From IMG/VR virus record IMGVR_UViG_3300033487_000316, positions 1 through 37,005 of that record: a DNA stretch of 37,005 bases; one strand, written 5' to 3'. The notes beneath the pieces are model-generated. The model made no database searches. It was not told the DNA's origin and saw only the letters and a program-made list of their open reading frames with translations. The DNA comes from a virus. Taxonomy: Duplodnaviria; Caudoviricetes. This document shows, one piece after another, positions 3,001 to 35,955 of this stretch; the first letter of the stretch is position 1, and every line of letters begins with the position of its first letter. A program made the position numbers and the translations under genes.

Positions 3001-6000
3001 TGGCCTAAACACATCCTCGGTGACTTCTGTTTTCTCGATGCCGATGCCAGAGAAGAGGCGGACTTTATTTCTGGCATCGTTTGGTGTATCGTAGAGGGCT
3101 ATCGCGCCATTTTCATGGCGTAGGTATGACCCATCCTCAAGGACGACTCGATACTTGGTGCTCGTGACCGACTCAATTTTACCGATAACCGTCTCGCCAA
3201 CCTGCGCGCCAAACTTCTTGCCAAACTTATCGGCGTACTTGGGCAGGATGTCATCATAGAAACCCTTCATCCCCTCCCCGCCGACAGACAACTGTGTTCC
3301 TGTTAGACGCTTATAAGAGTAGGGGTATTCTGTTGTAACATATTCATTACCATCGCCGGCCACAATGCGCGCCGCGATGTCCTTACCAATGTAGTTCTCC
3401 AGTTCTTCCGGCGTGAGCGGTTGCCGATTTGCGAACGTGCCGCCTATACCGTCTGTTGTTTCATAGGTGACAATGTACTTTCCATCTTCTGCTGACTCAT
3501 AGTTGATGTGCTTAACCCGTTTCGATATGTCGTAGCGTTCGGCCTGCTGCGCGCCAGTTGTCCACGCAATGCGATCGTACCCTTCCTCGGCGGCCAGCCG
3601 GGCGATGCGCCGAAAGGCCATCTCGTGCCAGGTCTTGGCATAGGGCGCCTGCGGGATACCGCGATCTTTGATCCGATCTAACTCCGATTGCAAGGCGTAT
3701 TGTTCTCGTCCGATCTCGCCGTCGCGCACATTAAGATTGTCGTGCAACCGTTTCAGGTCGGCATCAGGCCACTCGTCTTTCAGCCAGTCCCAACCATACT
3801 TTCCATACCGAGACTGATCGATGGTACCGTTCTGCATTTCGCGCAGTTGTACCTGCTGGCTGATACCCGCTAAGCGTTCTTCTTCTAGTGCAGCCAGTTG
3901 AGCAGTAATCGCCTGTACACGTGCGGGATCAACATACCCCTTCGTTCTACCCTGCTGGTGCCAGTCGCTCTGAATCTCTTCGATGAAGAGAACCTTCTTT
4001 CCGTCTGCATCAATCCGATCGTCAAGGCGGAAGTGGGCCAGTAGATTCTTGCCGAAACGTCCAAAGTGGGATGACTCGTATTGCTTCATCAGCGACCGAT
4101 TAAGATAGTCGGTCTTCTGATCGTAGATGCGCTTCCACTCCGGGCTATCTTCGGGTAGATCGCCGAGAAGTCGATTGAAGTATGCCACTTTGGCACTTTC
4201 AACCGTACTGGTATCCGGCATGGACATCAGCACTTCACGATAGTTCTCTCCGCCTGGCAGAGTATAGAGGTCGTAGATCGGAGTGGGCGCATTCACAACA
4301 GTCTTTTGCGCCTGGTTATATTTCCGCTTGGCTGACTGCGTGCTTTCATACAACGCACTTAGATACTCGCGCAGGCTATCGGCGCGTTCCTGCCCCAATC
4401 TCTTGACGAATGATAGGACTATCCCGCGCGGAGGATTCGGCTTAGCGAAGACTTCTACCAATCCACGGGCTGAGCTGATTGTTAGATCGAGATCGGCGAC
4501 GGTGATCTCGTCAACAGCCTGTTTCTTGGCGAGGTCAAGCCGGCCTTCAAGCGTCGTCATTTCAGAGTAGTACAGATCGCGCTCATCAATGAGGCTCTTG
4601 GGGATAGCCCCTAGAGTTTGCTCCTGTAGTGCAAATTGATTAGCGTTCAGGTAATCCAGCGCTTCGACCTTGCTGACTGGTCCAGTCTGTTCGTTCAGCC
4701 AGTCGTCGAATCCGGTCCACATCATCTCGTCGGCCTTCACGCCAGCGCCGGCCAGCATCTTACGCAGTTGGTCGATGGGCATTCGCGCCGACATCTTAGC
4801 GTCCAGCGTGCGCGCCAGAACGGAGTACCAGACCGGGCCGATCGCCTGGGTCTGGAAGAGGGGCTTCGCGCCGAACGAGAGTAGACTGTTAGGGATCGTC
4901 TCTTCGCGCGTCCCGATCGTGACGGTCGATGACTCAGGCGTGATGGACTTGACGACTGCCATCTCGCCGCGCGGCGTAACCACGGCATCGCCAATCTTCC
5001 AGGCCACTCCGGGCACTTCGCCAACTGCCGGCATGGGAGCCTCGACCAGTGGCACAAGTTCCCCACCTCGCGCCAGGTCTTCACCAAAGAGGCTGTATTG
5101 CGTCGGCTGCCCGAACATATCCAATTGATCGACGGCGGCCCGCTGGCGTTGACCACGCTGATACAGGGCCTGGGTAATGTCTCCAATTCCGCCAGCCTGC
5201 AAGCCGTACCAATCCTCGGGAGGCCGGTTCCAAACTCGTGACCAGACCTGCGCGTGTGCGTCGAGCAAAGCCATTGACATCTCGACCTGATCGGCATAGT
5301 CCGGGCTGGCCTGGTCAAACCAGCGGCTGACTACCTCATCAAGATAGCGCTGGCGTGTCCACGGGATAAGCGGCACGACATCGCTGGGGGCCGGATCAAG
5401 CAGGGCTTCGCGCGCCGTGACAACCTCTGCCTCCTGCTGCACTACGCGCGTCACATCCTCGACGGCAGACAGGGCCTGCTCGTTCAGGATCTCAGCCGGC
5501 GTTGCCTCAGCAAACATCGCGGCTCTGGCTTCGGCGTCGGCGCGTGCCGCTTCAAGGCGCGTGTTCATAGACTGCGTTGCTTCGAGTAGTGGCACATCCT
5601 CCATGTTTTCGTAGGCGGATAGATAGGCCCAGTCTGGATCGTCGATGTGCGCCTCGTTTGCCAGTCTCCGATCTTTGTTGACGGCATTCAATAGATGCTT
5701 GCGGCCACCCTTCCAGCCGGCGGCACGCATGATCGCCGTGTCCATCGTCGCCAATGACGGGGGCGGGACTGTGCGCAGGGGTGCCACTTCGCCCGGAGTC
5801 GGTTGTGCCCAAGTGGGTATCTCTTCCATTCCGGCCAGTGGATCGATCATCGTCTCGGCCAGTTGTGCCTCTTGGGCAGCGAGTAGTTCATCAACCGGGA
5901 TAGCCTCGGGGGTCTCGATGGGCGGCAAGCCAGCGGCTGCACGAGTAGCGTTGACCTCCGGTAGTACCTCGATCGGGGTCGGAATGTGGACCGGTGTCGG

Positions 6001-9000
6001 CAGGTCTGGCGTGCGTTCCGGGTCGAATACCTCACGCGCATTGAGAGTATCGAAGTCTGTCCCGGTAACACTCATGGGCTGCTCGACTGGTCCGGTCTCT
6101 GGTGCCGGCGTCACGGTCGGCGGTTTGATGGGCATCACATCCATTACCCGGTGACGCATGTCGATGTTGCGGATCATGATGTCCCGCCGGCGTGCCGTGC
6201 GTTCGGCATTGAAAGCCAGCCAGCGCTTGGACTTCTCCTTAGCGCTCTTGATATTCTTGATCGACTCGCGGAAGCGAGAGACAGCGGCCATGTCCTCCCG
6301 GTTGAACTGGCGCACGGTGTTGCGCCAATCATTGAAGGCGCGTCCGGTCTCATCGCCGAAGGCACGCGCAAACTCGGCCGTCATGTAAACGTCTGTGCGC
6401 AGCGCAATCGCCGCGAGGTCATCTGAGAGCGTGTTATACAGGGCGTTGATCTGTTCCTGTACCCTGATCCATTCCTCATCCGACTGCCGCTCTGGCCGTC
6501 CGAAGAACTCCGATCGAATCCGATCGCGCTCGGCGATAAACTCCTGGGTCTTCGCCCGCTTCTGTCGGGCCGCCGTTAGCCAGTTATCACTCAACTCCAA
6601 CCCGGCATCTTTCAGGCCGGACTCGACCCCGCGGTAGATGGCATCCTCATAGTCGAAGTAGGTTTGCCAGGATGAATCATCCGCCTCTGACAATTCCCGC
6701 TTCATCAGATCCCGAATACCCTTGTTGCCCTGCTGGTTGATGCGCTCCCACTCCACGTCATGACGGGACATGGTTTCTGAGTAGGTATCGAACAGGCGCG
6801 TTTCAATATCGTCGATACTATCCAGCGCCGCGCCCACATCGCCCAGCTTCATCACCTCCATAGCGTGCTCGCCAAACTGCGCGGCTTCCTCGCGTGCTGC
6901 TTCGTGGACAGCCTTCTCGCCGGCAGCTTTGATGTTGGCGAATGCCTTGCGGATGTGACCCTCGGTCGGTTTCTCGGGCAGCTTGCCCAGCTCGGTATTG
7001 ATTGTGCGGTCGAGGCCATCGATCTTGAACAGGTCTACTACCTGCTCTTCTGGCATCCCCAGATCGCGCGCCGTCTCTTTGATGTACTGCTGCATCACGG
7101 GTTGCGGGGCTTCGCCGAAGACTGCCGCATTGATCTCGCGCGGGTTTGCTCCGGCTTCGACCGCTGCATACACCCACTCAGGATCGATCCCAAAGCCGCG
7201 CAGTTGTTCCTCAAGCGCCGGCGGCATCAGGTCGATGCTCTTACCCTTGCGCCAGTTGGACGCATGGAAATCAAAGAACCCTTTGACCACGGCGCGCGCA
7301 CTCTGCCACTTCTCCACCTTCTGCGCCAGGCTGGTGGCCGGCATCTTGGCTGAGATACTATTACCCAGCCGCGTAATCTGCGCGAGTGCATCCTGTTTGT
7401 CCATCCCCTCTAATAGGACATGCTCACCACGCTTGTAAGCGACGGCCCCCCAGTTGCCGGCGTCGTTTGCTAAATCGGTCAGCTCGGCAGCGCCAATACC
7501 AGAGCGCAGGCGCGAAGGATCAATGCCCATGCTGCGCATCCGCTCAATGCCGGCTTTGATGTTGGTTAATCCCCAGACCCCACGGGCGAACATCGTCGCC
7601 TCGCCGTTGAAGACATTGTTGACGAGGTAACCAAGATTAGGACCCATCAGTAGCGTAGACTCGATCGCCTTTACAGCTCCAGCCAGACGCTGCGCGAAGC
7701 CGGGCGGCTGTACCTTAAACGTCTGAGCCGACCACTTGCCGGCATTCTCCATCATGCGCGAGAAGATCGCAGCCTGGTACTCTTCGGCAGTAAACGCCTG
7801 GCGACGGCCCATTGCATCGTACTCACGGAAGAGACCACGAATCGACTGTAATCCGTCTGCGTCAATCTCACTCGTACCGATCTTGAGAGGCGCACCCGTT
7901 GCCGCAGCAAACTCGGCGAGCACGCCGGCAGGATTTTCCTTGATGCGGTCGAAGACTGCAGCCGGCGTAATGTCTAACGCTTCGGAAATCTGATTGATAA
8001 GAGCCGCATACGGACGACTGGCCTTCCAACCGGAGAGCAATTCGTCGTAACTCTCCATCTCGCCCAGCGTCTGGCGATAGACCTTGCCTTCTAGGGTCTC
8101 CTGTATCTTAGAGTAAGCCTCGCGTCCTGGCATGGCGGCCGGCAGATCTTCCGGTCGCGCGCTGATGGTTGCCTTGACGGCGGCTGTGATGTCATCGACG
8201 TAGTTTGGATCGCCGATCGTAAAGCGCGAGTTGAGGTTTGACTGGTAGAAATTCAACGCCTGGTGCATCGTCTCTTTGGCTTCGCTCATCGGTTCGAGAC
8301 GATTCAACTGATACCACTTCGGCGGCTCGTAGCCGGCGCCCTCCGCCAGTTTTACCAGCGTCTTTGAGAGTAGCACCTTTTGGAGCATGTTCAGATCGCG
8401 CGCGGCTACAAAGTCATGGCGGAAGGGTATCTCACTTAGCATGATCCGCTTGTAGTTTTCCAGCGTCTTGATCAATCCGCCTTCGTAGGCAATCGCCGGG
8501 AAGGGGAAGAGGTCTAGTTTGACGCGGCCCTGCGTGCCCAGGATGCGCTCGGCCAGACCTTCACCACCCAATCTACGGACAATGCCGGCAGCGCCGCGCT
8601 GAATCGAACCCAGCGGTAGCGCTTCGGGCGTCATCGCCAGGGCCTTAGCCATACCTGGATCGTTGGCGTACTTGGCGTACAATTGCAGTCCACCCCGCTG
8701 GGCCTTGCCTACAAAGTTCAATGGATCGAGGAAGATGTTAAGCGCGAGATCTCGGATTTGACCCGGAGCACCAAACGACCCAGCCACTAGGGCCTTAATC
8801 TGATCCGGGTTCTGGCCTTCGAGAATACGTTGACGCGCCCAGGCCAGGGCATTGACACCAGACATGGGGGCCGGCCCGGTATCCCAATCGACAAACTGTG
8901 ACGTGGGGGATTCCATGATCCCATACATCGGCTTGCCAGTACGGATCGAATCGAGCATGTGCTGCACACCGAACACGCCGCGCACATCGAGCGGGGTAGC

Positions 9001-10113
9001 GGCATAGGTCAACTGTGCAGCGTCCCAGGCTGCGCCGAAGTTCTCGGCGAAGGTTTTGTTCTTGTCGAAGGAGTATTGATCTGGGTTGATCGCGGCAGCC
9101 AGACCCTGCGCACTCACGCCAATCACTCGCTTCACAGTCTCAGCCGGCGCATTGAGTGCGAGCAGGGCCATGCCTGGGATCGTGCGGTCAAATTCTTTTT
9201 GAGCCGCGTATAGTTCTTCGGCGGATGCAGCACGCTCGGCGAGTTGGCGTTGTTGTTCGGCCTGCACTAACATTGCGCCTGTGCCGATGGCTCCGCCGAT
9301 CAACGCGCCGATCGGGCCGGCGATAGCACCACCCACCAGCGCCGAAGGCGCACCTCCGGCAATAGCGGCCTGTCCAATCTGCGTCAGTGGATTGGACATG
9401 AATTGCGCAAACCCTCCACGCAAAGTCTTGTTAGGGTCGCCCTCTGGTAAACCAAACTGCTGACCAGCCCCCACCGTATCCTCTTTGTACTCGACGGGCG
9501 GCGCGATCTCGCGCGCAAATAACTTGATCTTCTGGTAACGCTTGTTCCCTTCCGTGCGATATTCGATGTTCCAGTCCTTACCAAACTCGCCAGGATTGAA
9601 AACAAACCCACCCTCTGGATCTAGTTCATAGTCCTCCGGTCCGCGCAGGTCAAGTCCAGCGGCTGTACCAATGTTCTTGGCAGTCTCAAGCGCATCCGAC
9701 ACAATCCGTATAGGGCCGGCCGGCGCTTGTGGCTGCTGCGAGCGTATCTCGCGTACTTGCTGATAACGCTGGCGGCTCTCTTCGTCCGGGGTGATGTGCA
9801 TTCGACCATCGTCGAGCACGCGCACCTTTGACTTTTCAAAGTTGACCCAGTTTGGTAAACGATATTTGAAGCGCTGCGCCGTTGTTCCGCCCGGGGGAGC
9901 CTTGTTAGGATCGTAGTATTCCCCTCCCTTGAAGCCGGCCGCCCAGCGGTCGCGCATCGCACGCATACGTGGGTCGGTAGCCGGCGGACCAAAACTGATC
10001 GGACGATTGGCCGGCGTCTTAGCCGGCGTCTTGGGCGGCTGTGGAGGTGGCGCTGTGTTAGGTTTTCCCTGTCCAACGGTTTGGGTTGGTTTCTGCTGTG
10101 GATTAGTAGCCAT
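1..10113 (-). CDS. Giant (>3,371 aa, 3'-truncated by window edge) polyvalent / internal virion (DNA-ejection-type) protein
   Basis: ATG at 10113 (MATNPQQKPTQ...). This minus frame has no entries in the ORF track and showed no stop wherever I translated it, down to base 1 (...ALAKDVNGIVSLDGPR). It contains a Gly-zipper hydrophobic segment (~9270-9370), a conserved phage domain with LFIEEIQSDWHQ (~3960-4000) and GMKGFYD (~3250-3275), an HEVSH zincin-like motif (2416-2430) followed by EDWARGFERFL, and a ParB/Srx-like PPIQV...VVTNGHRRLAAA segment (~1520-1610). Confidence 0.9.
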   Translation of the reverse strand, partial: MATNPQQKPTQTVGQGKPNTAPPPQPPKTPAKTPANRPISFGPPATDPRMRAMRDRWAAGFKGGEYYDPNKAPPGGTTAQRFKYRLPNWVNFEKSKVRVLDDGRMHITPDEESRQRYQQVREIRSQQPQAPAGPIRIVSDALETAKNIGTAAGLDLRGPEDYELDPEGGFVFNPGEFGKDWNIEYRTEGNKRYQKIKLFAREIAPPVEYKEDTVGAGQQFGLPEGDPNKTLRGGFAQFMSNPLTQIGQAAIAGGAPSALVGGAIAGPIGALIGGAIGTGAMLVQAEQQRQLAERAASAEELYAAQKEFDRTIPGMALLALNAPAETVKRVIGVSAQGLAAAINPDQYSFDKNKTFAENFGAAWDAAQLTYAATPLDVRGVFGVQHMLDSIRTGKPMYGIMESPTSQFVDWDTGPAPMSGVNALAWARQRILEGQNPDQIKALVAGSFGAPGQIRDLALNIFLDPLNFVGKAQRGGLQLYAKYANDPGMAKALAMTPEALPLGSIQRGAAGIVRRLGGEGLAERILGTQGRVKLDLFPFPAIAYEGGLIKTLENYKRIMLSEIPFRHDFVAARDLNMLQKVLLSKTLVKLAEGAGYEPPKWYQLNRLEPMSEAKETMHQALNFYQSNLNSRFTIGDPNYVDDITAAVKATISARPEDLPAAMPGREAYSKIQETLEGKVYRQTLGEMESYDELLSGWKASRPYAALINQISEALDITPAAVFDRIKENPAGVLAEFAAATGAPLKIGTSEIDADGLQSIRGLFREYDAMGRRQAFTAEEYQAAIFSRMMENAGKWSAQTFKVQPPGFAQRLAGAVKAIESTLLMGPNLGYLVNNVFNGEATMFARGVWGLTNIKAGIERMRSMGIDPSRLRSGIGAAELTDLANDAGNWGAVAYKRGEHVLLEGMDKQDALAQITRLGNSISAKMPATSLAQKVEKWQSARAVVKGFFDFHASNWRKGKSIDLMPPALEEQLRGFGIDPEWVYAAVEAGANPREINAAVFGEAPQPVMQQYIKETARDLGMPEEQVVDLFKIDGLDRTINTELGKLPEKPTEGHIRKAFANIKAAGEKAVHEAAREEAAQFGEHAMEVMKLGDVGAALDSIDDIETRLFDTYSETMSRHDVEWERINQQGNKGIRDLMKRELSEADDSSWQTYFDYEDAIYRGVESGLKDAGLELSDNWLTAARQKRAKTQEFIAERDRIRSEFFGRPERQSDEEWIRVQEQINALYNTLSDDLAAIALRTDVYMTAEFARAFGDETGRAFNDWRNTVRQFNREDMAAVSRFRESIKNIKSAKEKSKRWLAFNAERTARRRDIMIRNIDMRHRVMDVMPIKPPTVTPAPETGPVEQPMSVTGTDFDTLNAREVFDPERTPDLPTPVHIPTPIEVLPEVNATRAAAGLPPIETPEAIPVDELLAAQEAQLAETMIDPLAGMEEIPTWAQPTPGEVAPLRTVPPPSLATMDTAIMRAAGWKGGRKHLLNAVNKDRRLANEAHIDDPDWAYLSAYENMEDVPLLEATQSMNTRLEAARADAEARAAMFAEATPAEILNEQALSAVEDVTRVVQQEAEVVTAREALLDPAPSDVVPLIPWTRQRYLDEVVSRWFDQASPDYADQVEMSMALLDAHAQVWSRVWNRPPEDWYGLQAGGIGDITQALYQRGQRQRAAVDQLDMFGQPTQYSLFGEDLARGGELVPLVEAPMPAVGEVPGVAWKIGDAVVTPRGEMAVVKSITPESSTVTIGTREETIPNSLLSFGAKPLFQTQAIGPVWYSVLARTLDAKMSARMPIDQLRKMLAGAGVKADEMMWTGFDDWLNEQTGPVSKVEALDYLNANQFALQEQTLGAIPKSLIDERDLYYSEMTTLEGRLDLAKKQAVDEITVADLDLTISSARGLVEVFAKPNPPRGIVLSFVKRLGQERADSLREYLSALYESTQSAKRKYNQAQKTVVNAPTPIYDLYTLPGGENYREVLMSMPDTSTVESAKVAYFNRLLGDLPEDSPEWKRIYDQKTDYLNRSLMKQYESSHFGRFGKNLLAHFRLDDRIDADGKKVLFIEEIQSDWHQQGRTKGYVDPARVQAITAQLAALEEERLAGISQQVQLREMQNGTIDQSRYGKYGWDWLKDEWPDADLKRLHDNLNVRDGEIGREQYALQSELDRIKDRGIPQAPYAKTWHEMAFRRIARLAAEEGYDRIAWTTGAQQAERYDISKRVKHINYESAEDGKYIVTYETTDGIGGTFANRQPLTPEELENYIGKDIAARIVAGDGNEYVTTEYPYSYKRLTGTQLSVGGEGMKGFYDDILPKYADKFGKKFGAQVGETVIGKIESVTSTKYRVVLEDGSYLRHENGAIALYDTPNDARNKVRLFSGIGIEKTEVTEDVFRPTVSTKPENVDAAYWHSPEREREIGRLADGEYLASENMTLEREGDEFAVYRVDELGDKWEVGRSQVGSEALESARQAAGEVLPNRTGEYEIDDLGDGSAEPWRLRQYNEDGSDVVTFYKTHAEALAAASKNARVEQVHSLDITPAMRESVLREGVPLFQEQARQPKAAFELREGWQRTVTGFKNRDITSFVHEVSHGFLYDLFDAAKVDDQARQDLGHYQNWLKTSRDIDVSLVDGRLLATSDRLPKDWRLVEDAGQFQVYNGRDELMSSGIDRSATIREGLVVGAQEDWARGFERFLADGYAPTPELRRLFERFKKWIVQVYQRILGSDIDIDITPDMRGVYERLLVQTEPAYPLTDMPHTLRPDQMISTGGLRTADIGQYLTPENIKIASSRTTPSTLYERLTLRPGQWLWDEIPGGYGHEVEQIRLVDPNTLQPTEHIVEQGYDGRDIDAQRYAEWLREGRNAPPIQVVQHINGQYVVTNGHRRLAAAKAAGFPVLAQISPLMDTGEFDSAGNPIRTGMTYEGALLWAYKRGEAVDLSVIAALKDDVANGKYTYLRNIAPDIFTGPDVSNGNLLGSVVTATGLDTPARVIKIVDDRRARLLVPSGQEVTVPKSAITAVAHSPEEIAALRPEPPVAEPAPRTPEQVRAESFRTTPIEQLAREAETKTIAQRGRPPAGQQLMFGEEELPIFSGTPQRAPESAFVPREVAATEPLPGISPVPEFGQLRPTQAGMMPEGGLPLLENIGEITPEAADAYLLSLEAAHIEDVKRQIMISLGGRARLDWDMALSGPNRAGARAAIMTAIRNDGTRVPQSKAGITVLRAELAKLAGASDADTSHAQNEAVYNWLQGKYTQGETAARAVTQAESEVSEIGWRHFVEGYPRLAPSGLETALKPAWYKGWDDAKSATESVGLVPTPRETSPAEVTTRVPTPSEAAPAEMTMDRALELVRDHPVVAWKNAKTGDYVSSGRIVVQRGVRLKRDAEALAKDVNGIVSLDGPR

Positions 10114-10176
10114 GTAATTGCCTTGCGCTATGTAATGGCGCACGCTCACGATCGAGGATGATCGAAAGCCTGATCG

Positions 10177-10215
10177 AAAATGAGGCGACCGCGCAGTAGC
10201 GATCGGTCGCCCCAT
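10177..10215 (-). terminator. Intrinsic terminator-like hairpin upstream of the giant gene
   Basis: Minus strand ATGGGGCGACCG-12 nt loop-CGGTCGCCTCAT (one G-U pair) followed by TTT. Confidence 0.55.
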
Positions 10216-27252: not shown

Positions 27253-27528
27253 CTACTTAGCGGCGGGCGGAGTCGTCGGCTTCTTGCTGGTGATGTCGTA
27301 CAGGCCGGCCGCAGCCAGGCCCAACACGATACCGTCAAACGCGATCTGGAAGACCCCCGGGGGGACCAGGGCATAAGCGACGGCCGAGAGAATACCGATC
27401 GCCATAGCCGCTAGGGTCAGCCACTTTCCCGACAGGCCGAACTCCTTGACGAAGTTGACCAGCCCCAGGATGGCCGGCAGCAAAGAGACAATCAGAACAA
27501 AGTTCACTTCTGGTGATGTAGCGGACAT
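27253..27528 (-). CDS. Holin-like protein
   Basis: 91 aa, three TM segments, GIVLGLAAAGLYD motif and basic C-terminus; AGGAG RBS. Confidence 0.75.
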   Translation of the reverse strand: MSATSPEVNFVLIVSLLPAILGLVNFVKEFGLSGKWLTLAAMAIGILSAVAYALVPPGVFQIAFDGIVLGLAAAGLYDITSKKPTTPPAAK

Positions 27529-27539
27529 GAGTATAGCTC

Positions 27540-27665
27540 CTATGGAATGATAGTATAGTTACGTCCGCTGAGTAGACTTCCCAGCCCCATCAGCGGTCTC
27601 ACGACAACCACATAGATGACGCGGGCCAAGACCAGTATCATAAATCCTAAGAGGTGTCTCAGCAT
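27540..27665 (-). CDS. Small hydrophobic protein (41 aa)
   Basis: First ATG after the promoter at 27693-27722; weak RBS. Confidence 0.4.
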   Translation of the reverse strand: MLRHLLGFMILVLARVIYVVVVRPLMGLGSLLSGRNYTIIP

Positions 27666-27692
27666 GGATCGTCTTTCTAGTGGGCTACTGCT

Positions 27693-27722
27693 AGTGTACA
27701 ACAGATAGGGAGCAATAGTCAA
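27693..27722 (-). promoter_or_regulatory. Leftward promoter TTGACT-N18-TACACT (lysis/membrane operon)
   Basis: Exact match to the repeated architecture; divergent from 27771-27800. Confidence 0.7.
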
Positions 27723-27748
27723 ACGCCGGATTGCCATAACGGATAGCG

Positions 27749-27800
27749 AAAAATTTAAGGCAATAGAGCATTGACTTACTGTATAGATTTGTAATACACT
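27749..27800 (+). promoter_or_regulatory. Rightward promoter AAAAATTTAAGG-N10-TTGACT-N18-TACACT
   Basis: Carries both repeated motifs; GGAGG RBS at 27807 and ATG at 27819 follow. Confidence 0.75.
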
Positions 27801-27818
27801 TGTTTTGGAGGTGGGCAC

Positions 27819-28001
27819 ATGGCAGAACAAACTCGCAGAACACCGTTGCAAGTCAGCCCGACCGATCGAGATCTGGAAAACATCAAAGTCATCGAACAGG
27901 CTCACCCTGAATTTGCAACAACGGCGGATGTGCTACGGCACGCTTTGGAGACCACGCGACGTGCTTCTGAGCGCGAGCTGCAAACGCTATCGGCGACGTA
28001 A
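27819..28001 (+). CDS. Putative ribbon-helix-helix regulator
   Basis: 60 aa, beta-strand LQVS then two helices (TTADVLRHAL); first gene of the rightward operon. Confidence 0.6.
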   Translation: MAEQTRRTPLQVSPTDRDLENIKVIEQAHPEFATTADVLRHALETTRRASERELQTLSAT

Positions 28002-28101
28002 ATGAAAGCCGTGAGTGGGGCGACACTCACGGCCGGGGAAAGTCAGGCAGAAGATTCTGCCTTACACCCCGATCATACCACAAGGAAAAGGGGAAAGTCA
28101 A

Positions 28102-28590
28102 ATGAAGATAAAGCAGTGTGTTGTAGTCATCCACGGCAAGCGCTGCACCAATCAGCGGCGACCGGGCAGCCGATCGTGTGGCTGTCACGGGAAGAAGAAA
28201 TTCCGCTCAGTCAGGATTCGGCCACAGTCAGGCCCGATCTTCATCGAGGCAGCCTCCCCCTTATCCATACCAGAAGATCAGACTTACTCCGTCAAGCACG
28301 TGGATTACTCATATCCCGTGGTCGTATTTAATCCGGCAGTGGGATTGTTGCGAGTATCAAATCTACCTACCAATGCTCAGGAGCTGGGCGAGTTTGTCGC
28401 TCAGTGGCTGAGAAAACCAGGTCATATCCTAGAGGATGTCTACCGCATCGCTCCGAGCAAGATCCAGGTTTGGCCCGACGATTTTGGGTTGACAGCTATC
28501 AAGCTCCTTGAGCGTGATACTCCTCCCCCCGCCGGCTATCACATGGCCTTTGCAGGTACGGCACTGGTCGCTTTGGCGGTTCCAGAATGA
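28102..28590 (+). CDS. Hypothetical protein with N-terminal Cys/His cluster
   Basis: Start reassigned to 28102 (AAGGGG RBS); C..GKRC......CGCH. Confidence 0.65.
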   Translation: MKIKQCVVVIHGKRCTNQRRPGSRSCGCHGKKKFRSVRIRPQSGPIFIEAASPLSIPEDQTYSVKHVDYSYPVVVFNPAVGLLRVSNLPTNAQELGEFVAQWLRKPGHILEDVYRIAPSKIQVWPDDFGLTAIKLLERDTPPPAGYHMAFAGTALVALAVPE

Positions 28591-28997
28591 CCAGCATTCC
28601 ACAGGCCACCCTCGACACCTATGCGGCCACTCCGGCGACCATCACCTCGCGCAGCGGTCACATGCTCTATGTTACCTATTCCGGTAAAGCGTATTCAGTC
28701 TCGACGATTTACTGCACGTGCTCCGATGTCGAAGCGGCTCTCTACCGCACTGGGCGGGAAAGCGACGACAGCTATCAGGCCGTGTTGGTCTGTCCAAATC
28801 ACGGGACCCATACCTCAGCAGCTCTACCCTGCGGAAACCCGACAGTGCGCGGCGAGACGATCTCTCCGCGACAGGCCGGACGTATCTTTGGTTACTCAGA
28901 ACAACTGGCGCGATCTGCGGCAAAGCGCAGCAAAGTCCCGCAATGGGGCTTCAACTCGAATGCCGGCTCTGGAACTAACGATCGAGAGTCCGGTTAA
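28587..28997 (+). CDS. Hypothetical Cys-containing protein
   Basis: ATGA overlap; CTC and CPNH motifs. Confidence 0.6.
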   Translation: MTSIPQATLDTYAATPATITSRSGHMLYVTYSGKAYSVSTIYCTCSDVEAALYRTGRESDDSYQAVLVCPNHGTHTSAALPCGNPTVRGETISPRQAGRIFGYSEQLARSAAKRSKVPQWGFNSNAGSGTNDRESG

Positions 28998-29028
28998 TAT
29001 CTAGTTAGCCCGCTATTCGGAGGTAGGC

Positions 29029-29292
29029 ATGGCAGATATGCTTTTGGTAATTGGTTCTTCTCTTTCCGGTTCAGATGTGTCAGCGAAAGACCGTTCTACC
29101 ATCTTTAATAAGGTCGAGGCGCATGTTGGTGATCCTGTTGAACTGTCTCGTGAGGCATGGCAGGCAATCACCTTTGCGGCGAAGATGGAATTTTTACGCC
29201 AGTGCCGCAAACAGGCGCGGGCTAACAAGCGCGTGCAGCCGACGCGCAGGGCTGGCAAGTCTGGTACATCAAAATCTAATGCGCGCGGCTGA
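29029..29292 (+). CDS. Cassette 1 hypothetical protein
   Basis: GGAGG RBS; C-terminus (ANKRVQPTRR...) is read through the attC. Confidence 0.7.
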   Translation: MADMLLVIGSSLSGSDVSAKDRSTIFNKVEAHVGDPVELSREAWQAITFAAKMEFLRQCRKQARANKRVQPTRRAGKSGTSKSNARG

Positions 29293-29312
29293 CGCGCAGA
29301 CCGTTAGCCCGC
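29217..29312 (+). repeat. attC-like site
   Basis: GCGGGCTAAC-AA-GCGCGT(G)CAGCCG(A)CGCGCA...TGCGCG-CGGCTG-ACGCGC-AGACC-GTTAGCCCGC. Confidence 0.85.
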
Positions 29313-29328
29313 TCGAAAGAAGGAAATC

Positions 29329-29574
29329 ATGGAAGAAGAAATCAGAGGCAGGGGCATCAAGTTACACAATGACTATGCAGCCGCACTCGGAAGGCTGTTT
29401 GCAGAATGCCCTAAATCCGTGTTCGCCGCCATTGCTGTAAGTGCTCTAACGTGTGGCGGAGAGCAATTGCAGGACGCGCAATATCAGGTGTGGAATGAAT
29501 GGCGCATCCTGCACGAAAATGGAATCGTAGAGCAGAAGCCCCCGGCGAAGCCAGAATGTGCGCCAGCCGCTTAA
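29329..29574 (+). CDS. Cassette 2 hypothetical protein
   Basis: AAGGA RBS, 81 aa. Confidence 0.75.
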   Translation: MEEEIRGRGIKLHNDYAAALGRLFAECPKSVFAAIAVSALTCGGEQLQDAQYQVWNEWRILHENGIVEQKPPAKPECAPAA

Positions 29575-29591
29575 TTCAACCGTTGGGCCGC
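29566..29591 (+). repeat. attC right-half remnant
   Basis: GCCGCTTAATTCAACCGTTGGGCCGC; no matching left arm seen. Confidence 0.5.
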
Positions 29592-29611
29592 AACTCTCTT
29601 GCGAGGATAAA

Positions 29612-29890
29612 ATGATAATCTCAGCATCAATCGTGGTCATGGGGCGCAGGCTGTATAAGTGCGAGACGTGCGGAAAAACTATCTTTGCGTCTCACGTCCG
29701 TCTCTATGGCAGCGCAGAACAAGGCGATCCGCCGTTCGTGGTACGCATCCATCCAGAATGTGCAACCCGTGAAGTGCTCGTAAAACTTCAAGCGGCCAAA
29801 CACCGCGTGAAGCCGAACGCCGATCATGCGTCGGTAATGTATCGGGTTAAAACTGCCGTCTCTGCTGTTGGTGGCGTCGGCTTATGCTAG
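29612..29890 (+). CDS. Cassette 3 small Zn-finger-like protein
   Basis: Start 29612 (GAGGA RBS); CETC...HPEC; C-terminus runs through the attC. Confidence 0.7.
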   Translation: MIISASIVVMGRRLYKCETCGKTIFASHVRLYGSAEQGDPPFVVRIHPECATREVLVKLQAAKHRVKPNADHASVMYRVKTAVSAVGGVGLC

Positions 29891-29903
29891 TCCGTTAGGT
29901 GGC
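29792..29903 (+). repeat. attC-like site
   Basis: GCGGCCAAAC-ACC-GCGT(G)AAGCCG(A)ACGCC...GGCGT-CGGCTT-ATGC-TAGTCC-GTTAGGTGGC. Confidence 0.75.
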
Positions 29904-29919
29904 TACTTGGAGGCCAGCA

Positions 29920-30126
29920 ATGTGCAACATTCAACTGTTAGGGCAAAACAATGTCGGAAAAGTGTATGGGTGTGAAACGCACGACCTGCGATTTGTAGTC
30001 ACTTGGCGGCAAATGAACTCTGGGTCAGCGTCGCCCTCGCCGGACAAGTGCCCGGAGAACGCCGCCCAACAAGGGCGTGAAGACCGACCCGCTACGCCGC
30101 CGACAGCGCGGGATGAATCAAAGTAA
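29920..30126 (+). CDS. Cassette 4 hypothetical protein
   Basis: Start 29920 (GGAGG RBS); ends inside the attC loop. Confidence 0.6.
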   Translation: MCNIQLLGQNNVGKVYGCETHDLRFVVTWRQMNSGSASPSPDKCPENAAQQGREDRPATPPTARDESK

Positions 30127-30159
30127 CGCGGGCGGCTTATGCCCGTGCCGTTGGGCGGC
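30061..30159 (+). repeat. attC-like site
   Basis: GCCGCCCAAC-AA-GGGCGT(G)AAG(A)CCG(A)CCCGC...GCGGG-CGG-CTT-ATGCCC-GTGCC-GTTGGGCGGC. Confidence 0.85.
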
Positions 30160-30164
30160 ATATC

Positions 30165-30431
30165 ATGGCACTACCACCAAGCAAAGAATTAGTATTCTGC
30201 ATAACGTTTCACAAAAGCATCCACGCTGGACACGATGACGAATGGTGTATCTGGCTACGTGTTGATGGAAATCGTTTTGAGTATTACGGAAAGAGCACAA
30301 AGTCACATGCAGACGCTAAGGCAAAGGCAACCCGCATCGCTGCCAAAGGTAAGCGCATGTGTTCTTTCGTCAGTGAAGAAGAAATGAAAAAAGGGACTGC
30401 ACATGAAGAAGAAAATTTACTTTACGCTTAA
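30165..30431 (+). CDS. Cassette 5 hypothetical protein
   Basis: ATG a few nt after the attC core; AT-richer than the backbone. Confidence 0.65.
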   Translation: MALPPSKELVFCITFHKSIHAGHDDEWCIWLRVDGNRFEYYGKSTKSHADAKAKATRIAAKGKRMCSFVSEEEMKKGTAHEEENLLYA

Positions 30432-30561
30432 CTCCATTGGGCGAAAGTTTGCATACCCAATGCTATCGGGACGTTCTTTGGTTGTTTCACAAAGCATCGC
30501 GCGTTTGTTCTTTGGGTTAGCAAATCTCTGCTGCCCAACACACTGGAACAGGAGGCCATAG
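30403..30561 (+). CDS. Small hypothetical protein (52 aa; below the ORF-track cutoff)
   Basis: AAAGGGA RBS, MKKKIYFTLNSIGRKF...; stop abuts the next ATG. Confidence 0.4.
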   Translation: MKKKIYFTLNSIGRKFAYPMLSGRSLVVSQSIARLFFGLANLCCPTHWNRRP

Positions 30562-30792
30562 ATGATGGCAATTAGAAAAAAGCGGACAACCCAACAGATC
30601 GATCGGGCCGGCCTAAACGGTCGCCGGCGCTGGTGTCCATCCTGTCAAGAGATGATCGGCACGCAGCGCGGTAGATTCAACCAGCACGGATCAACTATGC
30701 CTGGAAAAGAAGTGTACTGCCGGATGAGCGGAGAGAAAGTCGGGGCGCCTGTACCCACAAAGCCAAAGCCTATGCCGCGTAGGAAGCACTGA
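30562..30792 (+). CDS. Basic hypothetical protein with CPSC...H...C motif
   Basis: AGGAGG RBS. Confidence 0.65.
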   Translation: MMAIRKKRTTQQIDRAGLNGRRRWCPSCQEMIGTQRGRFNQHGSTMPGKEVYCRMSGEKVGAPVPTKPKPMPRRKH

Positions 30793-30793
30793 C

Positions 30794-31891
30794 ATGCGCA
30801 AGTATTTCATTGCAGTTAAGACCGGCCTCAGCCAAGATCCACGCCATCAGAAAAGGATGGGTAATCGTATCTGGCTGTTCCTCTTCATCGTCGATCATGT
30901 GGATTGGGAAACAGGCCGGATCGATTCTTGGACGGACGAATGGGCAGCCAGTGAAATGGATATGTCCAAGGCGACGATCAAGCAGCAGCGCCAGGAATTG
31001 CAAACGCTGGGCTATATCACTTGTCAACAGCTCAAGCGCTGGCAGCGTATTACGGTGCATAACTGGCAGAATCCGCGCTCGGCGACACGTGAGATCATCA
31101 ACAAAAAGCCTGTATTCGGCGATGAGTACAAGCGCAACCCCCCAAATATGGCACAGGCAGCAGTAGTCAAGGGTGATGGAATTACCTCCCCCTTGGCAGA
31201 AGAGGCCAAGGGGGAGGTCAAGGGGGAGGTCAAGGGGATAGGTAAATACCCCCCTCTTCCTATTAAAGATCAGATTGATCACATTGATCACACACTCAGT
31301 GGGTTTGAGGTCTGGGATGCTATTGTCCCTTATCTGGAAGCGAAGTTTAACGGCAGCTATGCGAGGCTAAATCCTCGTCTGCATTCGGTGGATGACCCGC
31401 GTATCTTGACAGTGTTCGTGAATGAGGCCGACCGGTATATCAAGGGTTCGATCGGGAAACTGGCGAAGATGGTCAGCGGTGAAAAGTGGGATGTGACGGT
31501 GACGGTCAATCCCCCAATCGTCTGCGGATCGACTCTTTTGCCAGTCCAGCAGCAGATCAATGCCCTGTCGCAGCGAATAGACCAGCTCGCCGGCGCTGTG
31601 CAGTGGGTAGACGGCGAAGACAAAGAAGCCTTGACGTATCTGGCCGAGAAGGACATCACGCCAGACCAGTTGGAGCAGATCTATCATATCGTGTACCAGA
31701 ACTCTCCCAAGTTCTGGGCAACCCGGCGCATCGGTCCAAAGACCATCGCCAAAAATATATCCCTATTGAATGGGGGGAAAAATGTCAGACCTACAACGGA
31801 TACTCGAACAGGAGCGGATAAGACTAGCGAAGCTGATCTCCGCGCCGTCGCCGCTGAAATCAACGCCGCTCGCGCCGCTCGGAAATCCTGA
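30794..31891 (+). CDS. Putative replication initiator protein (N-terminal wHTH)
   Basis: IWLFLFIVD...WAASEMDMSKATIKQQRQELQTLGYI HTH; internal iteron repeats; directly upstream of the DnaC-like gene. Confidence 0.75.
   Translation: MRKYFIAVKTGLSQDPRHQKRMGNRIWLFLFIVDHVDWETGRIDSWTDEWAASEMDMSKATIKQQRQELQTLGYITCQQLKRWQRITVHNWQNPRSATREIINKKPVFGDEYKRNPPNMAQAAVVKGDGITSPLAEEAKGEVKGEVKGIGKYPPLPIKDQIDHIDHTLSGFEVWDAIVPYLEAKFNGSYARLNPRLHSVDDPRILTVFVNEADRYIKGSIGKLAKMVSGEKWDVTVTVNPPIVCGSTLLPVQQQINALSQRIDQLAGAVQWVDGEDKEALTYLAEKDITPDQLEQIYHIVYQNSPKFWATRRIGPKTIAKNISLLNGGKNVRPTTDTRTGADKTSEADLRAVAAEINAARAARKS
31168..31243. repeat. Putative replication origin iterons within the initiator gene
   Basis: CAAGGGGGAGGT twice (31207-31230), inverted copy ACCTCCCCCTTG (31184-31195), degenerate copies at 31168 and 31231. 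Confidence 0.65.
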
Positions 31892-32582
31892 CGCAGATCC
31901 GGCCTGTGAGATGTGCGGCGGGCAGGGGTATTACTCGGTCAGTGTCCCGCTTAACCATCAACTCTTCGGGAAGGTACTGGACTGTCCCTGTACAGCGCCG
32001 GCTAGATCCGCGCGGCTGCAGGCGACCTGTGGTCTCAACTCCGCTGAGCGATCAATCACACTCGACGACATCGCAGCGGCTGGGCCGGGCACCAGGCAGA
32101 TGGTCAAAGCCGCGCAAGCGTTTATCGAAACTCCGCGCGGATTCTTGACACTGTGGGGGGGACCCGGCAACGCCAAGACGATGGTGTTACAGGCGATTGT
32201 CAATCAGGCCATCGGCTTAGGCCGCATGGCCGTCTACATTACCATGCTAGATCTGCTCGACTATATCCGCGAAGCCTATGCCGAGCGGCAGTCCCAGATT
32301 CATGAGTCCGCCTCGCGCCGGCTGAGTCGCTACGCTAACGTGGAAGTGCTCTGCATCGACGAGGTTGATAAGGTAAAGACTACCGACTGGACCGTAGAAC
32401 GGGAGACAGCCCTGTTTGATATTCGCTACCGCTCGGGTCTGGTCTGGTCGGCGGGTACTGTGCTGGCGATGAATGCCAATCCGGCCACTCTCCCCGATTG
32501 GATTTACAGCCGCCTCAGCGATGGCCGTAATACCATTATCGAGAATGCCGATCCAGACCTGCGCCGTTACATGAAGGATTGA
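31782..32582 (+). CDS. DnaC/IstB-like AAA+ helicase loader
   Basis: CEMC...CPC Zn motif, Walker A-like GGPGNAKT, Walker B VLCIDE, IYSRL; start could alternatively be 31770. Confidence 0.85.
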   Translation: MSDLQRILEQERIRLAKLISAPSPLKSTPLAPLGNPDADPACEMCGGQGYYSVSVPLNHQLFGKVLDCPCTAPARSARLQATCGLNSAERSITLDDIAAAGPGTRQMVKAAQAFIETPRGFLTLWGGPGNAKTMVLQAIVNQAIGLGRMAVYITMLDLLDYIREAYAERQSQIHESASRRLSRYANVEVLCIDEVDKVKTTDWTVERETALFDIRYRSGLVWSAGTVLAMNANPATLPDWIYSRLSDGRNTIIENADPDLRRYMKD

Positions 32583-33280: not shown

Positions 33281-33539
33281 CAAACTCCATGTTGGAAAAC
33301 GGCCCGGGAAATCTACTAGCGGGCGTGACCATGCCTACGATAAAGGACGCGCGCCGGGCAAAGCACAGTCCGTCTACTCGCCACAGTGCATCATCCAGAT
33401 CACGCGGAGCTATGGTCTCTGCGCCAACTGCGGAAAAGAACACGATCTCATCAATAACTACTGTGCGGTTTGTCGGGCAAATTGCGCCAATGAGGCGCAG
33501 TGCATGAACCCGCGCAGATTAACAGGAGCCAGTCAATGA
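33264..33539 (+). CDS. Zn-finger-like hypothetical protein
   Basis: CANC...CAVC; stop overlaps the MTase start (ATGA). Confidence 0.55.
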   Translation: MRSVSNKLHVGKRPGKSTSGRDHAYDKGRAPGKAQSVYSPQCIIQITRSYGLCANCGKEHDLINNYCAVCRANCANEAQCMNPRRLTGASQ

Positions 33540-35305
33540 TTGAAAGTGTGTGGCACGGTTGTTACGATCAGACTCTAAAAGGCATTATCACGCCAGAATC
33601 ATTCAGGCATCCGGCGAAGATGGGAAAAGTCCTGTGCGAACGTATCTTTGATCACGGAAACCAGATGGGCTACTGGCAGCCAGGCGATGTCATCGGCGAA
33701 TCCTTCGGCGGCATCTTCACGGTGGGTATCCTCGGTTCCTACCGCGGCTACCAGGTGATTGGTGTGGAACTCGAACCGCACTTCCACGATCTAGGGCTGG
33801 CGAATATCGACAAGAACCTCAAGAAGTTAAACCATCTGGGCAAGCCCATCCCGATCCTAGTTCAGGGTGACTCCCGTCAGTTTGCCGAGATTATCAGGAC
33901 GGTACTGCCGTTCATTGGCGCAGAGCACGCGGCCGGCGTCGTGACCAGTCCTCCGTATATGAGAGATCATGGTGAGAGTGGGATAGATCAAACTAAATTG
34001 AATGGGCATACTACAGGCATATATTCTCAAGCGTTTTCAAATGGATACGGTGACACCTCCGGCCAGATCGGCGCGTTGGACGGCAACGACTTCGATCAAG
34101 TTTCCGGCGTCATCACCTCGCCACCTTTCTCGCAGCCACAGACCCGCGACCGATCGGAAGTCTCGCCCGGTCTCATCGCAGACGCCATGACCCGCGCCTA
34201 CACCGTGGATCGACAGGGGACCACCGAGGGTAACATCGCGGCGCTGGCCTATGACGACATCGACGGTGTGATCACTTCTCCCCCGTTTGAAAGGACTTTG
34301 GCGCGTGAGCTTGTCGATGCAGACGCGCGCCGTGAGTATGCCCGTGCCCACGGCATCAGCAATGCCGAGCACGTCTCAGTAATCGATATGGAGCGCACGG
34401 GAGCACGCGATCAGGAGTATGGAAACACTGCCGGCCAAATTGGCGTGTTAAGTGGTGGGGAGATTGACGGGGCTATTACTTCGCCGCCGTATGCTGACCA
34501 GTCAATCGCCAAATCAAGCACCTCGATCGATTACCAAAAGCAATATGAAACCTATCGCAGTCAGGGAGGCGGAGCGTCGTTCGAGAAGTTCGTCGCTACA
34601 CAGAAACTGCATAGCCAAGAGTATGGCACAGCGGATGGGCAGATCGGTGTACTGCCCTCTCGGACAGACGACAACAATGAGAAAGAAACCTACTGGCAAG
34701 CAATGGCCCAGGTCTATCAACAGATCTGGTTAGCGCTCAAGCCAGGCGGGGTGGCGGCTATCGTCGTCAAAGACTACATCCGCAATAAGCAGCGGGTGCT
34801 ACTGTGCGACCAGACGGCCAGCCTCTTAGAGCGCCTGGGCTTTACCATCGTCGAGCGCACGCGCGCCATGCTGGTCAAAGAACAGGCGCAAGCCTCGCTC
34901 ATGCAGATCGAGGATACCAGTACCACCACCACCAATCTACTCGGCGATACATCCGCGCAGGTAGGCGCCGAGATCGGAGAAGTGGCCGTCAGCGAGCGGG
35001 TCGAGCGCTTATCTTTCTTCCGCCGGCTGCACGGCAAGAAATACCCTCACCTCAAGATTGAATGGGAGGAAGTAATTTGGGCGCAGAAGCCGGGCCAGAA
35101 TGGGGGGGGGATTGAAGGGGTTGTTACCTCGCCACCGTATGGCGATGGATCAGCAAATCATGGAGGAAACATCAACAACTCAAAAATGTATATCACTGGC
35201 GGAAAATTATACGGTGTCGGATTAGAAGACTTCCATTCTGTAGCTCGATATGGTGAAACGCCCGGCCAGATCGGACAGTTGAAAGAAGGAGATATACCCA
35301 CATGA
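33536..35305 (+). CDS. DNA amino-methyltransferase-like protein (N4-C/N6-A) with five TSPP[Y/F] modules
   Basis: Start 33536 (AGGAG RBS); HPAKM, degenerate motif I (GESFGGIFT..GVELE), QGDSR, TSPPY/F five times, LKPGG..IVVKD. Confidence 0.85.
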   Translation: MIESVWHGCYDQTLKGIITPESFRHPAKMGKVLCERIFDHGNQMGYWQPGDVIGESFGGIFTVGILGSYRGYQVIGVELEPHFHDLGLANIDKNLKKLNHLGKPIPILVQGDSRQFAEIIRTVLPFIGAEHAAGVVTSPPYMRDHGESGIDQTKLNGHTTGIYSQAFSNGYGDTSGQIGALDGNDFDQVSGVITSPPFSQPQTRDRSEVSPGLIADAMTRAYTVDRQGTTEGNIAALAYDDIDGVITSPPFERTLARELVDADARREYARAHGISNAEHVSVIDMERTGARDQEYGNTAGQIGVLSGGEIDGAITSPPYADQSIAKSSTSIDYQKQYETYRSQGGGASFEKFVATQKLHSQEYGTADGQIGVLPSRTDDNNEKETYWQAMAQVYQQIWLALKPGGVAAIVVKDYIRNKQRVLLCDQTASLLERLGFTIVERTRAMLVKEQAQASLMQIEDTSTTTTNLLGDTSAQVGAEIGEVAVSERVERLSFFRRLHGKKYPHLKIEWEEVIWAQKPGQNGGGIEGVVTSPPYGDGSANHGGNINNSKMYITGGKLYGVGLEDFHSVARYGETPGQIGQLKEGDIPT

Positions 35306-35955
35306 CACACCCTGCCTATGCCGTCGCCGATAAACTGAAAGCTGCCATCGAGCCGGCCTGCGTCCGGGTCGAGATTGCCGGCAGTATCAGCCGGCTAAAA
35401 CCAGAACCGAAAGACGTTGAGATTGTCTGCCAGCCTCAGATCGGAGTGTGGACTGTGCCGGATATGTTTGGTGGACCCCCCGCCACTTATGAGGTCAATC
35501 ATCTTGAGACACTGCTAGGAAAACTGTACGAGTCTTTCCTATGGCGACTTGACCCAGAGAACAGAAAGGACGGACCAAATTATAAGCGGCTGCAACACGT
35601 CGAAAGCGGAATCGGTTGTGATGTCTTCATCGTTACCGATAGGCGTAAGTGGGGCATGATAAAAACCATCCGAACAGGATCAAGCACCTTCTCGCGCAAC
35701 CTGGTAACACACGTTCGGCATTGCGGTTGGTTTGTGCAACATGGCCTGCTACACCAGCATCAGCCAGAATTGAATGAACTCGACGAGGTTCAAGAGTGCC
35801 CTAACGGCCAGCAGTGCCCGCAGATTCTAGCACTCTATGAAGAGCGTGAGGTATTCGACGCACTGGGCCTGCCGTGGATCGAGCCTCCCGAGCGGACTAC
35901 ACTGATTGAAGCACTGGCCCGCGAGAACTACCGCCAGGAGTTAAAGGCCCTGTGA
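35302..35955 (+). CDS. DNA polymerase X family-like nucleotidyltransferase (stand-alone palm/thumb)
   Basis: VEIAGSISR..PKDVEIV, CDVF, IRTGS, EEREVFDALGLPWIEPPER. Confidence 0.85.
   Translation: MTHPAYAVADKLKAAIEPACVRVEIAGSISRLKPEPKDVEIVCQPQIGVWTVPDMFGGPPATYEVNHLETLLGKLYESFLWRLDPENRKDGPNYKRLQHVESGIGCDVFIVTDRRKWGMIKTIRTGSSTFSRNLVTHVRHCGWFVQHGLLHQHQPELNELDEVQECPNGQQCPQILALYEEREVFDALGLPWIEPPERTTLIEALARENYRQELKAL

Follow-up and report, generated by a model that had tools for sequence, protein, structure and literature searches.

A probable attI site heads an integrase-free array of integron cassettes in the early operon of a phage

Introduction

Integrons are bacterial stores of resistance and anti-phage genes. 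How could integron gene cassettes come to lie among the early genes of a phage with no integrase beside them, and could they still be loaded or lost there? The question is raised by virus record IMGVR_UViG_3300033487_000316 (Caudoviricetes), whose whole linear sequence of 37,005 bases, with an estimated completeness of ~82%, is the window analysed here. An initial annotation, made from the sequence alone, proposed that five small genes at 29004..30539 form an array of cassettes with attC sites, expressed from a phage promoter and exchanged by the integron integrase (IntI) of the host. We confirm that the array consists of integron-type attC cassettes in a phage; their recombination by IntI is predicted from their anatomy. 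The first core, at 29004, probably belongs to an attI. Cassettes that IntI inserts at attI take the first position, and its substrate is the bottom strand in folded form (10.1101/2022.09.11.507474, PMC4889954; statements about these and the other papers cited refer to the part of their text that was available).

The cassette array and its attC sites

The five cassettes follow one another on the plus strand:

29005..29303, plus strand: cassette 1, with an 87-aa gene (29029-29292) that reads into its own attC; no family
29304..29582, plus strand: cassette 2, with an 81-aa helical protein (29329-29574) of a phage-occurring family
29583..29894, plus strand: cassette 3, with a 92-aa CxxC/HxxC zinc-finger-like protein (29612-29890) that reads into attC 3
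29895..30150, plus strand: cassette 4, with a 68-aa gene (29920-30126) that ends inside attC 4
30151..30539, plus strand: cassette 5, with two open reading frames (ORFs; 30165-30431 and 30403-30561)

A gene had been described just after a GTTRRRY core at each of five positions. All positions and ORFs hold, with a same-strand ORF beginning 15-30 nt after each core (GTTAGCC at 29004 and 29303, GTTGGGC at 29582 and 30150, and GTTAGGT at 29894), but both GTTAGCC cores miss the strict consensus at one position. Three complete attC sites are present within 940 bp (bit scores are those of the covariance model described below):

29220..29309, minus strand: attC 1, intact; 67.7 bits on the bottom strand versus 18.8 on the top, fold z -5.28, spacers of 5 and 8
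29795..29900, minus strand: attC 3, complete but weaker; 29.4 bits, E 2e-5, fold z -0.24
30064..30156, minus strand: attC 4, intact; 49.2 bits, fold z -2.61

In sites 1, 3 and 4, cores R'' (RYYYAAC-like) and R' (GTTRRRY-like) bound an imperfect inverted repeat, some of these cores being one letter off the textbook consensus. On the top strand, the left arm of each of the three sites carries an unpaired G and an unpaired A, and the right spacer is 8 in every case. A paired-arm scan and a covariance model agree on these three complete hairpins, as they were first described. The scan returned these sites only in the 37 kb (one of them on both strands), versus 1 hit in five random 37-kb sequences. 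The covariance model, R1, was self-built from 21 attC sites, all from outside the window; nine came from loci fetched for their intI, and 12 from loci fetched with patterns of the window's own attC arms, so the scores listed above are inflated. The three bottom-strand sites stand well above the rest of the window, where R1 gives at most 10 bits apart from the top strand of attC 1. Bottom-strand folding supports the attC shape for sites 1 and 4 and not for the full hairpin of site 3, which does not form one long hairpin; its L-box stem alone forms.

There were no Rfam matches in the window. A Xer-type integron look-alike was rejected, the anatomy matching that of sites beside true intI genes. 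Covariation counts for the attC sites were not used, as they are circular when the sites have been chosen by a hairpin scan.

The description as an array of attC cassettes is borne out by the three complete sites, but the 29004 core is preceded by an attI-like site, and cassettes 2 and 5 are incomplete. The attC of cassette 2 has the right arm only (29569-29588) and no left core, and that of cassette 5 is a lone left core (30533-30539) with no fitting right arm. With half of the attC gone from two cassettes of the five, the array is probably fixed in part, and cassette 5 is probably immobile. Cassettes 1 and 4 singly, and 2 and 3 as one unit, could still be excisable. The left core matches the start of its own cassette at 10, 9, 8 and 9 of 10 letters for cassettes 1, 3, 4 and 5, respectively. 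Preservation is best at the site next to attI and poorest at the last site.

By the published definition (a minimum of two attC sites with no intI nearby; PMC4889954), the array is an attC-site cluster that has no integron integrase (CALIN). It is not a complete integron, as no intI adjoins it and there is no cassette promoter (Pc). It may function as an integron with a remote integrase. Searches of the ~82% complete contig revealed no tyrosine recombinase (no PF00589 match, and no tblastn match to the IntI of the bacterial genome G001 at E up to 1), which extends to the rest of the contig the earlier statement that no integrase was in view.

An attI-like site at the head of the array

28976..29010, plus strand: probable attI, from two rankings among GTT sites
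28587..28997, plus strand: 136-aa Cys/His-rich gene that runs into attI, from comparison with homologues

The site comprises TAAC (28976-28979), GAGAGTC (28984-28990), an L box (GGTTAAT, 28992-28998), a 5-nt spacer, and a G/TT crossover at 29004/29005. A 23-letter piece of attC 1 occurs in nine genomes from several phyla, including G001, a Roseiflexus metagenome-assembled genome (MAG) with two complete integrons. The attI beside intI in G001 and the window at 28976-29013 have in common TAAC, GAGAGTC, the L box, the 5-nt spacer and GTTAGCCCGC. IntI above the family cut-off is encoded by 26 of 301 genomes of the phylum of G001, which we take to be Chloroflexota, and it is fairly likely that the phage has its host in this phylum.

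A matrix of the 24 letters before GTT was made from 12 distinct intI-linked candidates, chosen by eye from 26 intI loci. With this matrix, 29004 ranks first of the 896 GTT sites in the window at a modest 4.2 bits, and the other four cores of the array score -16 to -32 bits. Among 1,871 GTTRR sites in other viral loci, one reached the score of 29004. Alignment to the G001 attI also places 29004 first (of 895 sites; score 7 against a mean of -8.2, standard deviation 3.6), and one of 7,503 GTT sites in other viral loci reached this score.

The intI loci L026-L052 give a draft attI consensus for the G001 phylum, with C at -14, an R-N-A-TAA-W box, and A at -1, followed by GTTRG; the right spacer of attC sites near intI is mostly 7-8 rather than 6. 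A draft consensus was thereby obtained for a site that the available text of PMC4889954 describes as unknown for most integrons and not open to search there. We found no published Chloroflexota attI consensus in a literature search that mostly left subscription journals outside.

The DNA upstream of the probable attI is a phage gene, and neither intI nor an intI remnant is present there. The last 8-12 residues and the stop codon of this gene (28587..28997) overlap the site. The stop codon lies inside the L box and two homologues (n=2) end 8 and 12 residues earlier, which would fit a joining of attI to the end of the gene. A Pc just upstream of attI is absent: the sole plus-strand promoter consensus in 27500-30900 is that at 27771-27800, 1.2 kb upstream.

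Cargo of the cassettes

No Pfam, PHROGs or PADLOC family was identified for any of the cassette genes, and the one NCBIfam match (E 0.074) is far below its cut-off. The first ORF of cassette 5 has two homologues and no family. The cassette-2 family has 12 relatives in a protein search and occurs in 18 viral loci, 17 of them without attC in the flanks examined. For its predicted structure (predicted local distance difference test 82, from 28 sequences), no known fold gave a clear match, the best values being a Foldseek E of 5.5 and a Z of 2.9. An assignment of cassette 2 to an integrase N-terminal domain was rejected, as all ESM Atlas matches fell under the bar. The family of the cassette-3 protein is large and consists of small CxxC/HxxC proteins (180 hits, including some long proteins with many repeats), and it occurs as a plain gene without attC in one viral locus. 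Tails that resemble attC read-through are found in four of 75 short cassette-3 homologues, among 149 listed hits, and lend slight support.

The cassette-2 and cassette-3 families were each found in none of 401 bacterial genomes of the candidate host phylum, in searches run without a positive control. Since both families occur in viral loci and were not found in these genomes, the cargo looks like phage accessory genes. Each of the two families has members in cassettes as well as members that are plain phage genes, a concrete case for studying how cassettes arise; the mechanism by which new cassettes originate is called unknown in the available text of PMC4889954. The GC content is 0.52 for the array versus 0.56 for the contig, and 0.445 for cassette 5.

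Other cassette-bearing phages

Cassettes in other phages were found with two narrow patterns and one protein family, and thus give no frequency. The closest relative of cassette 2 (68% protein identity) is in prophage G406 (L055:4965-5556), where it forms part of a complete cassette of two genes that agrees with cassette 2 in its first 12 letters and has a full attC (48.8 bits). This cassette is alone in its record, at a site scoring -19.1 as attI, and the DnaC-like protein of G406 is 50% identical to that of the window. In a second phage (L073:4699-5078), a single cassette lies behind a DnaB-like helicase, at a site scoring -27.3 as attI. Both are single cassettes at secondary GTT sites in early or replication regions.

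Phage G407 encodes a terminase 42% identical to that of the window, along with a portal, capsid and serine-type integrase. Just before its terminase (L023:3812-8643), a 190-aa IntI-like gene is directly followed by seven attC sites, with cargo that includes DNA methyltransferase, radical-SAM-like and Mom-like genes. The IntI-like gene scores 78.6 bits versus a family cut-off of 265, and apparently lacks two catalytic residues, by motif position. In G408 (L024), at least five same-strand attC sites, with a repeated stretch, lie directly before head protease and capsid genes, and the array runs off the contig end. Three of the five viral hits of a left-arm pattern (L020-L022) were discarded, as they had no attC-model hit.

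Relatives of the locus and attI sites remote from intI

Several searches bear on whether the array has changed. No cassette-skipping joint was found in four sequencing runs searched as contigs; since rare variants are lost from contigs, the result does not speak against such joints. Metagenome contigs yielded only the window's own record, GenBank phages gave no blastn or tblastn match, and the DnaD-like protein had no close relative in 381 genomes. None of the listed runs containing window DNA is an RNA dataset. In run X1, one 155-nt contig matches 29582-29634 (94% alike, with two other letters and one gap), starting exactly at the core G; the flank preceding this cassette-3 start is not that of the window and has an attI score of 15.3 bits. 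A contig break in X1 (29006/29029) and a loose end in X2 (29315) are assignable to neither phage nor host and were not used. A wetland metagenome gave the best match for the window DNA and is possibly its source.

A pattern for the attI family matched six places in three of 401 genomes (reversed control: one), four beside intI and two not. The two intI-free sites lie in one shared stretch of DNA in G001 (L083) and G300 (L082), 95-97% alike over ~1.44 kb, with no intI within 1.5 kb upstream and with a TTGACA-17-TATAAT promoter of their own. After GTT the two sequences differ, i.e., their first cassettes are different. The G001 copy, of which 73 letters remain before the contig ends, starts like the first cassette of the complete integron of G300 (51 of 55 letters). 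In the Roseiflexus MAG (L007:4897-5804, cassette on the minus strand), an attI-like site of 20.3 bits is followed by a cassette and has no adjacent intI; it lies beside toxin-antitoxin-like genes and two more attC sites. These sites in G001, G300 and L007 would constitute a natural precedent for loading by IntI at a distance.

The early operon and the rest of the contig

The contig encodes, among others, a terminase, a holin, DnaD-like and DnaC-like proteins, a methylase and a resolvase. Structural and lysis genes are leftward and early genes rightward, and between them is an intergenic region with two mirrored promoter-like sites. The cassette array is in the rightward operon, downstream of three small genes and directly upstream of the replication module. 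In addition to the gene that runs into attI, features of this region are:

27693..27722, minus strand: leftward sigma-70-like promoter facing the holin/structural arm (consensus match only)
27771..27800, plus strand: rightward sigma-70-like promoter, TTGACT-18-TACACT (9 of 12 consensus matches)
27819..28001, plus strand: first gene of the rightward operon, 60 aa, ribbon-helix-helix-like (RHH; ESM Atlas lead only)
28102..28590, plus strand: ORF for a 162-aa product, with no NCBIfam or PADLOC family
30794..32582, plus strand: replication module, with DnaD-like (30794-31891, PHROGs 7498) and DnaC-like (about 31785-32582, PHROGs 50) genes

The cassettes had been placed among early genes under a phage promoter. 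They are in the rightward early operon, and the terminator scan found no plus-strand terminator between the rightward promoter and the replication genes. The promoter itself is less secure: the consensus is at 27771-27800, and the four promoter-consensus sites found are not above the count in shuffled sequences (2.4 +/- 1.9). From its position between divergent operons, the site at 27771-27800 probably takes the place of Pc. As the array is followed by the replication genes on its own strand, transcription would cover every cassette.

The leftward and rightward promoter sites have the same two hexamers and an 18-nt spacer, with 18 of 30 letters identical. Lying back to back at 27693-27800 beside the RHH-like gene, they are possibly a shared switch of both operons. 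The product of this gene has a feature score of 0.91 to an RHH_1 cluster and template-modelling scores of 0.62-0.73 to RHH/ParD-like models in the ESM Atlas, and may be an autoregulator.

Within the DnaD-like gene, a short tandem repeat with a unit of ~12 letters (31202-31238) possibly represents origin iterons. A 601-aa multi-segment DNA methylase-like gene precedes one that matches the DNA polymerase beta thumb (33500-35955). On the minus strand at 1-10215, a single open frame of more than 3,400 codons extends past the contig end and probably encodes a giant virion or tail protein; this one open frame rules out recoding of the left 10 kb.

How the array may have been loaded

We somewhat favour the explanation that the phage relies on host IntI, acting in trans, to load cassettes at its own attI, that the early promoter expresses them, and that older sites decay. 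A short attI (~45 nt, without intI and Pc) would have become attached to a phage gene at its 3' end. While the phage infects or lysogenises a host that has an integron, probably one of the Chloroflexota, IntI would recombine the folded bottom-strand attC of circular cassettes with this attI. Recombination would take place at G/TT, pushing older cassettes downstream, and the rightward promoter of the phage would replace Pc. Older sites, such as those of cassettes 2 and 5, would decay, fixing their genes in the operon. If this is correct, an integrase-free phage has a working attI, and integron machinery has been turned to phage use, with genes loaded and expressed in the early operon. The claim is open to direct test, as the site of 50 nt, the three attC sites and candidate IntI genes from hosts are all available.

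Several points weigh against this explanation. The contig is linear and ~82% complete, which leaves room for an integrase elsewhere in the genome. Decay does not increase steadily along the array, as site 4 is better preserved than site 3 and cassette 2 is broken, and the left core of cassette 4 fits the next core (10 of 10 letters) better than the start of its own cassette (8 of 10). The attI training sites were picked by eye after the window site had been seen, and six of the 12 are backed by a downstream attC with a matching left core. In addition to its modest score, the 29004 site has a runner-up at 3.9 bits, and the leave-one-out range is -2.3 to 20.3. The attI was profiled in one phylum, that of G001, and the attI pattern matched no contig in the viral collection. 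The host phylum is itself an inference, and the left arm of attC 1 also occurs in genomes of Actinomycetes, Ignavibacteria, Methylocaldum and Zixibacteria; the Methylocaldum site has a similar L box. No close relatives were found among viral contigs via the upstream gene, the DnaD-like or the DnaC-like protein. The X1 contig is single, short, at a depth of 2.7 and of unassigned origin, and the absence of the cargo families from host genomes comes from the uncontrolled searches described above.

Alternatively, a piece of a host integron (attI plus cassettes) may have been captured once by illegitimate recombination and may now be both decaying and becoming domesticated, with no further IntI traffic. 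The ragged ends would fit such an event, as there is no intI or Pc at the left and a truncated attC at the right, as would the two broken attC sites of the five and the greater AT-richness of the array relative to the contig. Host chromosomes contain attI sites without a neighbouring intI that could be captured, and routes of this kind are suggested in the available text of Qi et al. (PMC9892861). We nevertheless consider a single capture unlikely. The two tested cargo families occur in phages and were not found in the genomes sampled from the candidate host phylum, distal sites are damaged whereas site 1 is flawless (10 of 10 letters and the highest score), and the related phages G406 and G407 also bear cassettes.

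An integrase supplied by a phage, encoded in the missing part of the genome or by a co-infecting phage, is quite improbable, as is its variant in which the array is the remnant of a phage-borne integron that lost intI. About 18% of the genome is missing, and G407 has an IntI-like gene directly before its seven attC sites. However, the window has phage DNA where an intI or its remnant would adjoin attI, and the G407 gene is only 190 aa long, far below the family cut-off, and apparently without two catalytic residues. Least probable is that the first site is a secondary genomic site (attG) or a decayed attC and that the array grew by insertions into existing attC sites: IntI does insert cassettes at many GWT sites (10.1101/2022.09.11.507474, available text), the single cassettes of L055 and L073 are at sites that score poorly as attI, the matrix score of 29004 is modest and folding is weak for the 76 nt that surround the first core (z -1.78). 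Against this, 29004 is first in the window by two measures and has GAGAGTC and an L box as in a true attI, and with the attC model there is no hit at this site at E up to 5.

Beyond host IntI loading this one phage, we tentatively suggest that Chloroflexota phages may hold an integron-cassette pool of their own, in which accessory genes are made into cassettes and traded via host IntI. Conceivable routes, put forward with the same reserve, are phage attI docks (the window), secondary sites (L055 and L073), and arrays behind dead-looking intI genes (G407). If so, phages parasitise the host integron and are one source of new gene cassettes.

Comparison with known systems

Insertion at attG sites, and the single attC sites lacking an integron integrase (SALINs) that are defined in the available text of Loot et al. 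(10.1101/2022.09.11.507474), resemble the window system in that IntI acts away from its own locus. The single cassettes of L055 and L073 fit this category. In contrast to attG sites, which that text presents as chance genomic sites unlike attI, the first site in the window resembles a true attI and heads five cassettes. The CRGM motif to the right of the cut in attG is unreadable here, the right side having been lost with the truncated last attC.

The complete chromosomal integrons of the G001 phylum have the same attI layout (L box, 5-nt spacer and GTT, with GAGAGTC and TAAC upstream), as well as attC sites with a right spacer of 7-8, unpaired G/C and A, and the same cassette-start 10-mers. 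Unlike these integrons, the window has no intI and no Pc, its array is in a phage operon, and the tested cargo families are not found in the 401 genomes.

The closest published likeness is with phage CALINs. From 10,705 phage genomes, Qi et al. (2023; PMC9892861) list 17 CALINs and four elements of the integron or In0 type, and they report that five of six phage attC sites recombine with attI1 under IntI1. Integrase-free phage attC clusters with attC x attI1 recombination are thus already published, and the array is less of a novelty than the initial annotation held, in which integrons were regarded as rare in phages. The cryptic Shewanella prophage M16-3, which carries an intI itself, is the one case in the available text of PMC9892861 where a phage CALIN is preceded by attI, and the stress is on transfer of phage cassettes to bacteria, not on loading into phage. 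We found no publication that describes loading, in a phage, of an array with attI and without integrase, and none on the loading of a phage attI in trans (subscription journals were again mostly outside the search). Like the window, phage CALINs such as that of Tetrasphaera phage TJE1 have at least two same-strand attC sites and small genes, with no intI, in a phage. The start of the TJE1 array is not among the top attI scores of that phage under the attI matrix, whereas the array in the window opens with an attI that is probably of host type and is attached to a phage gene, and this array lies between an early promoter and the replication genes.

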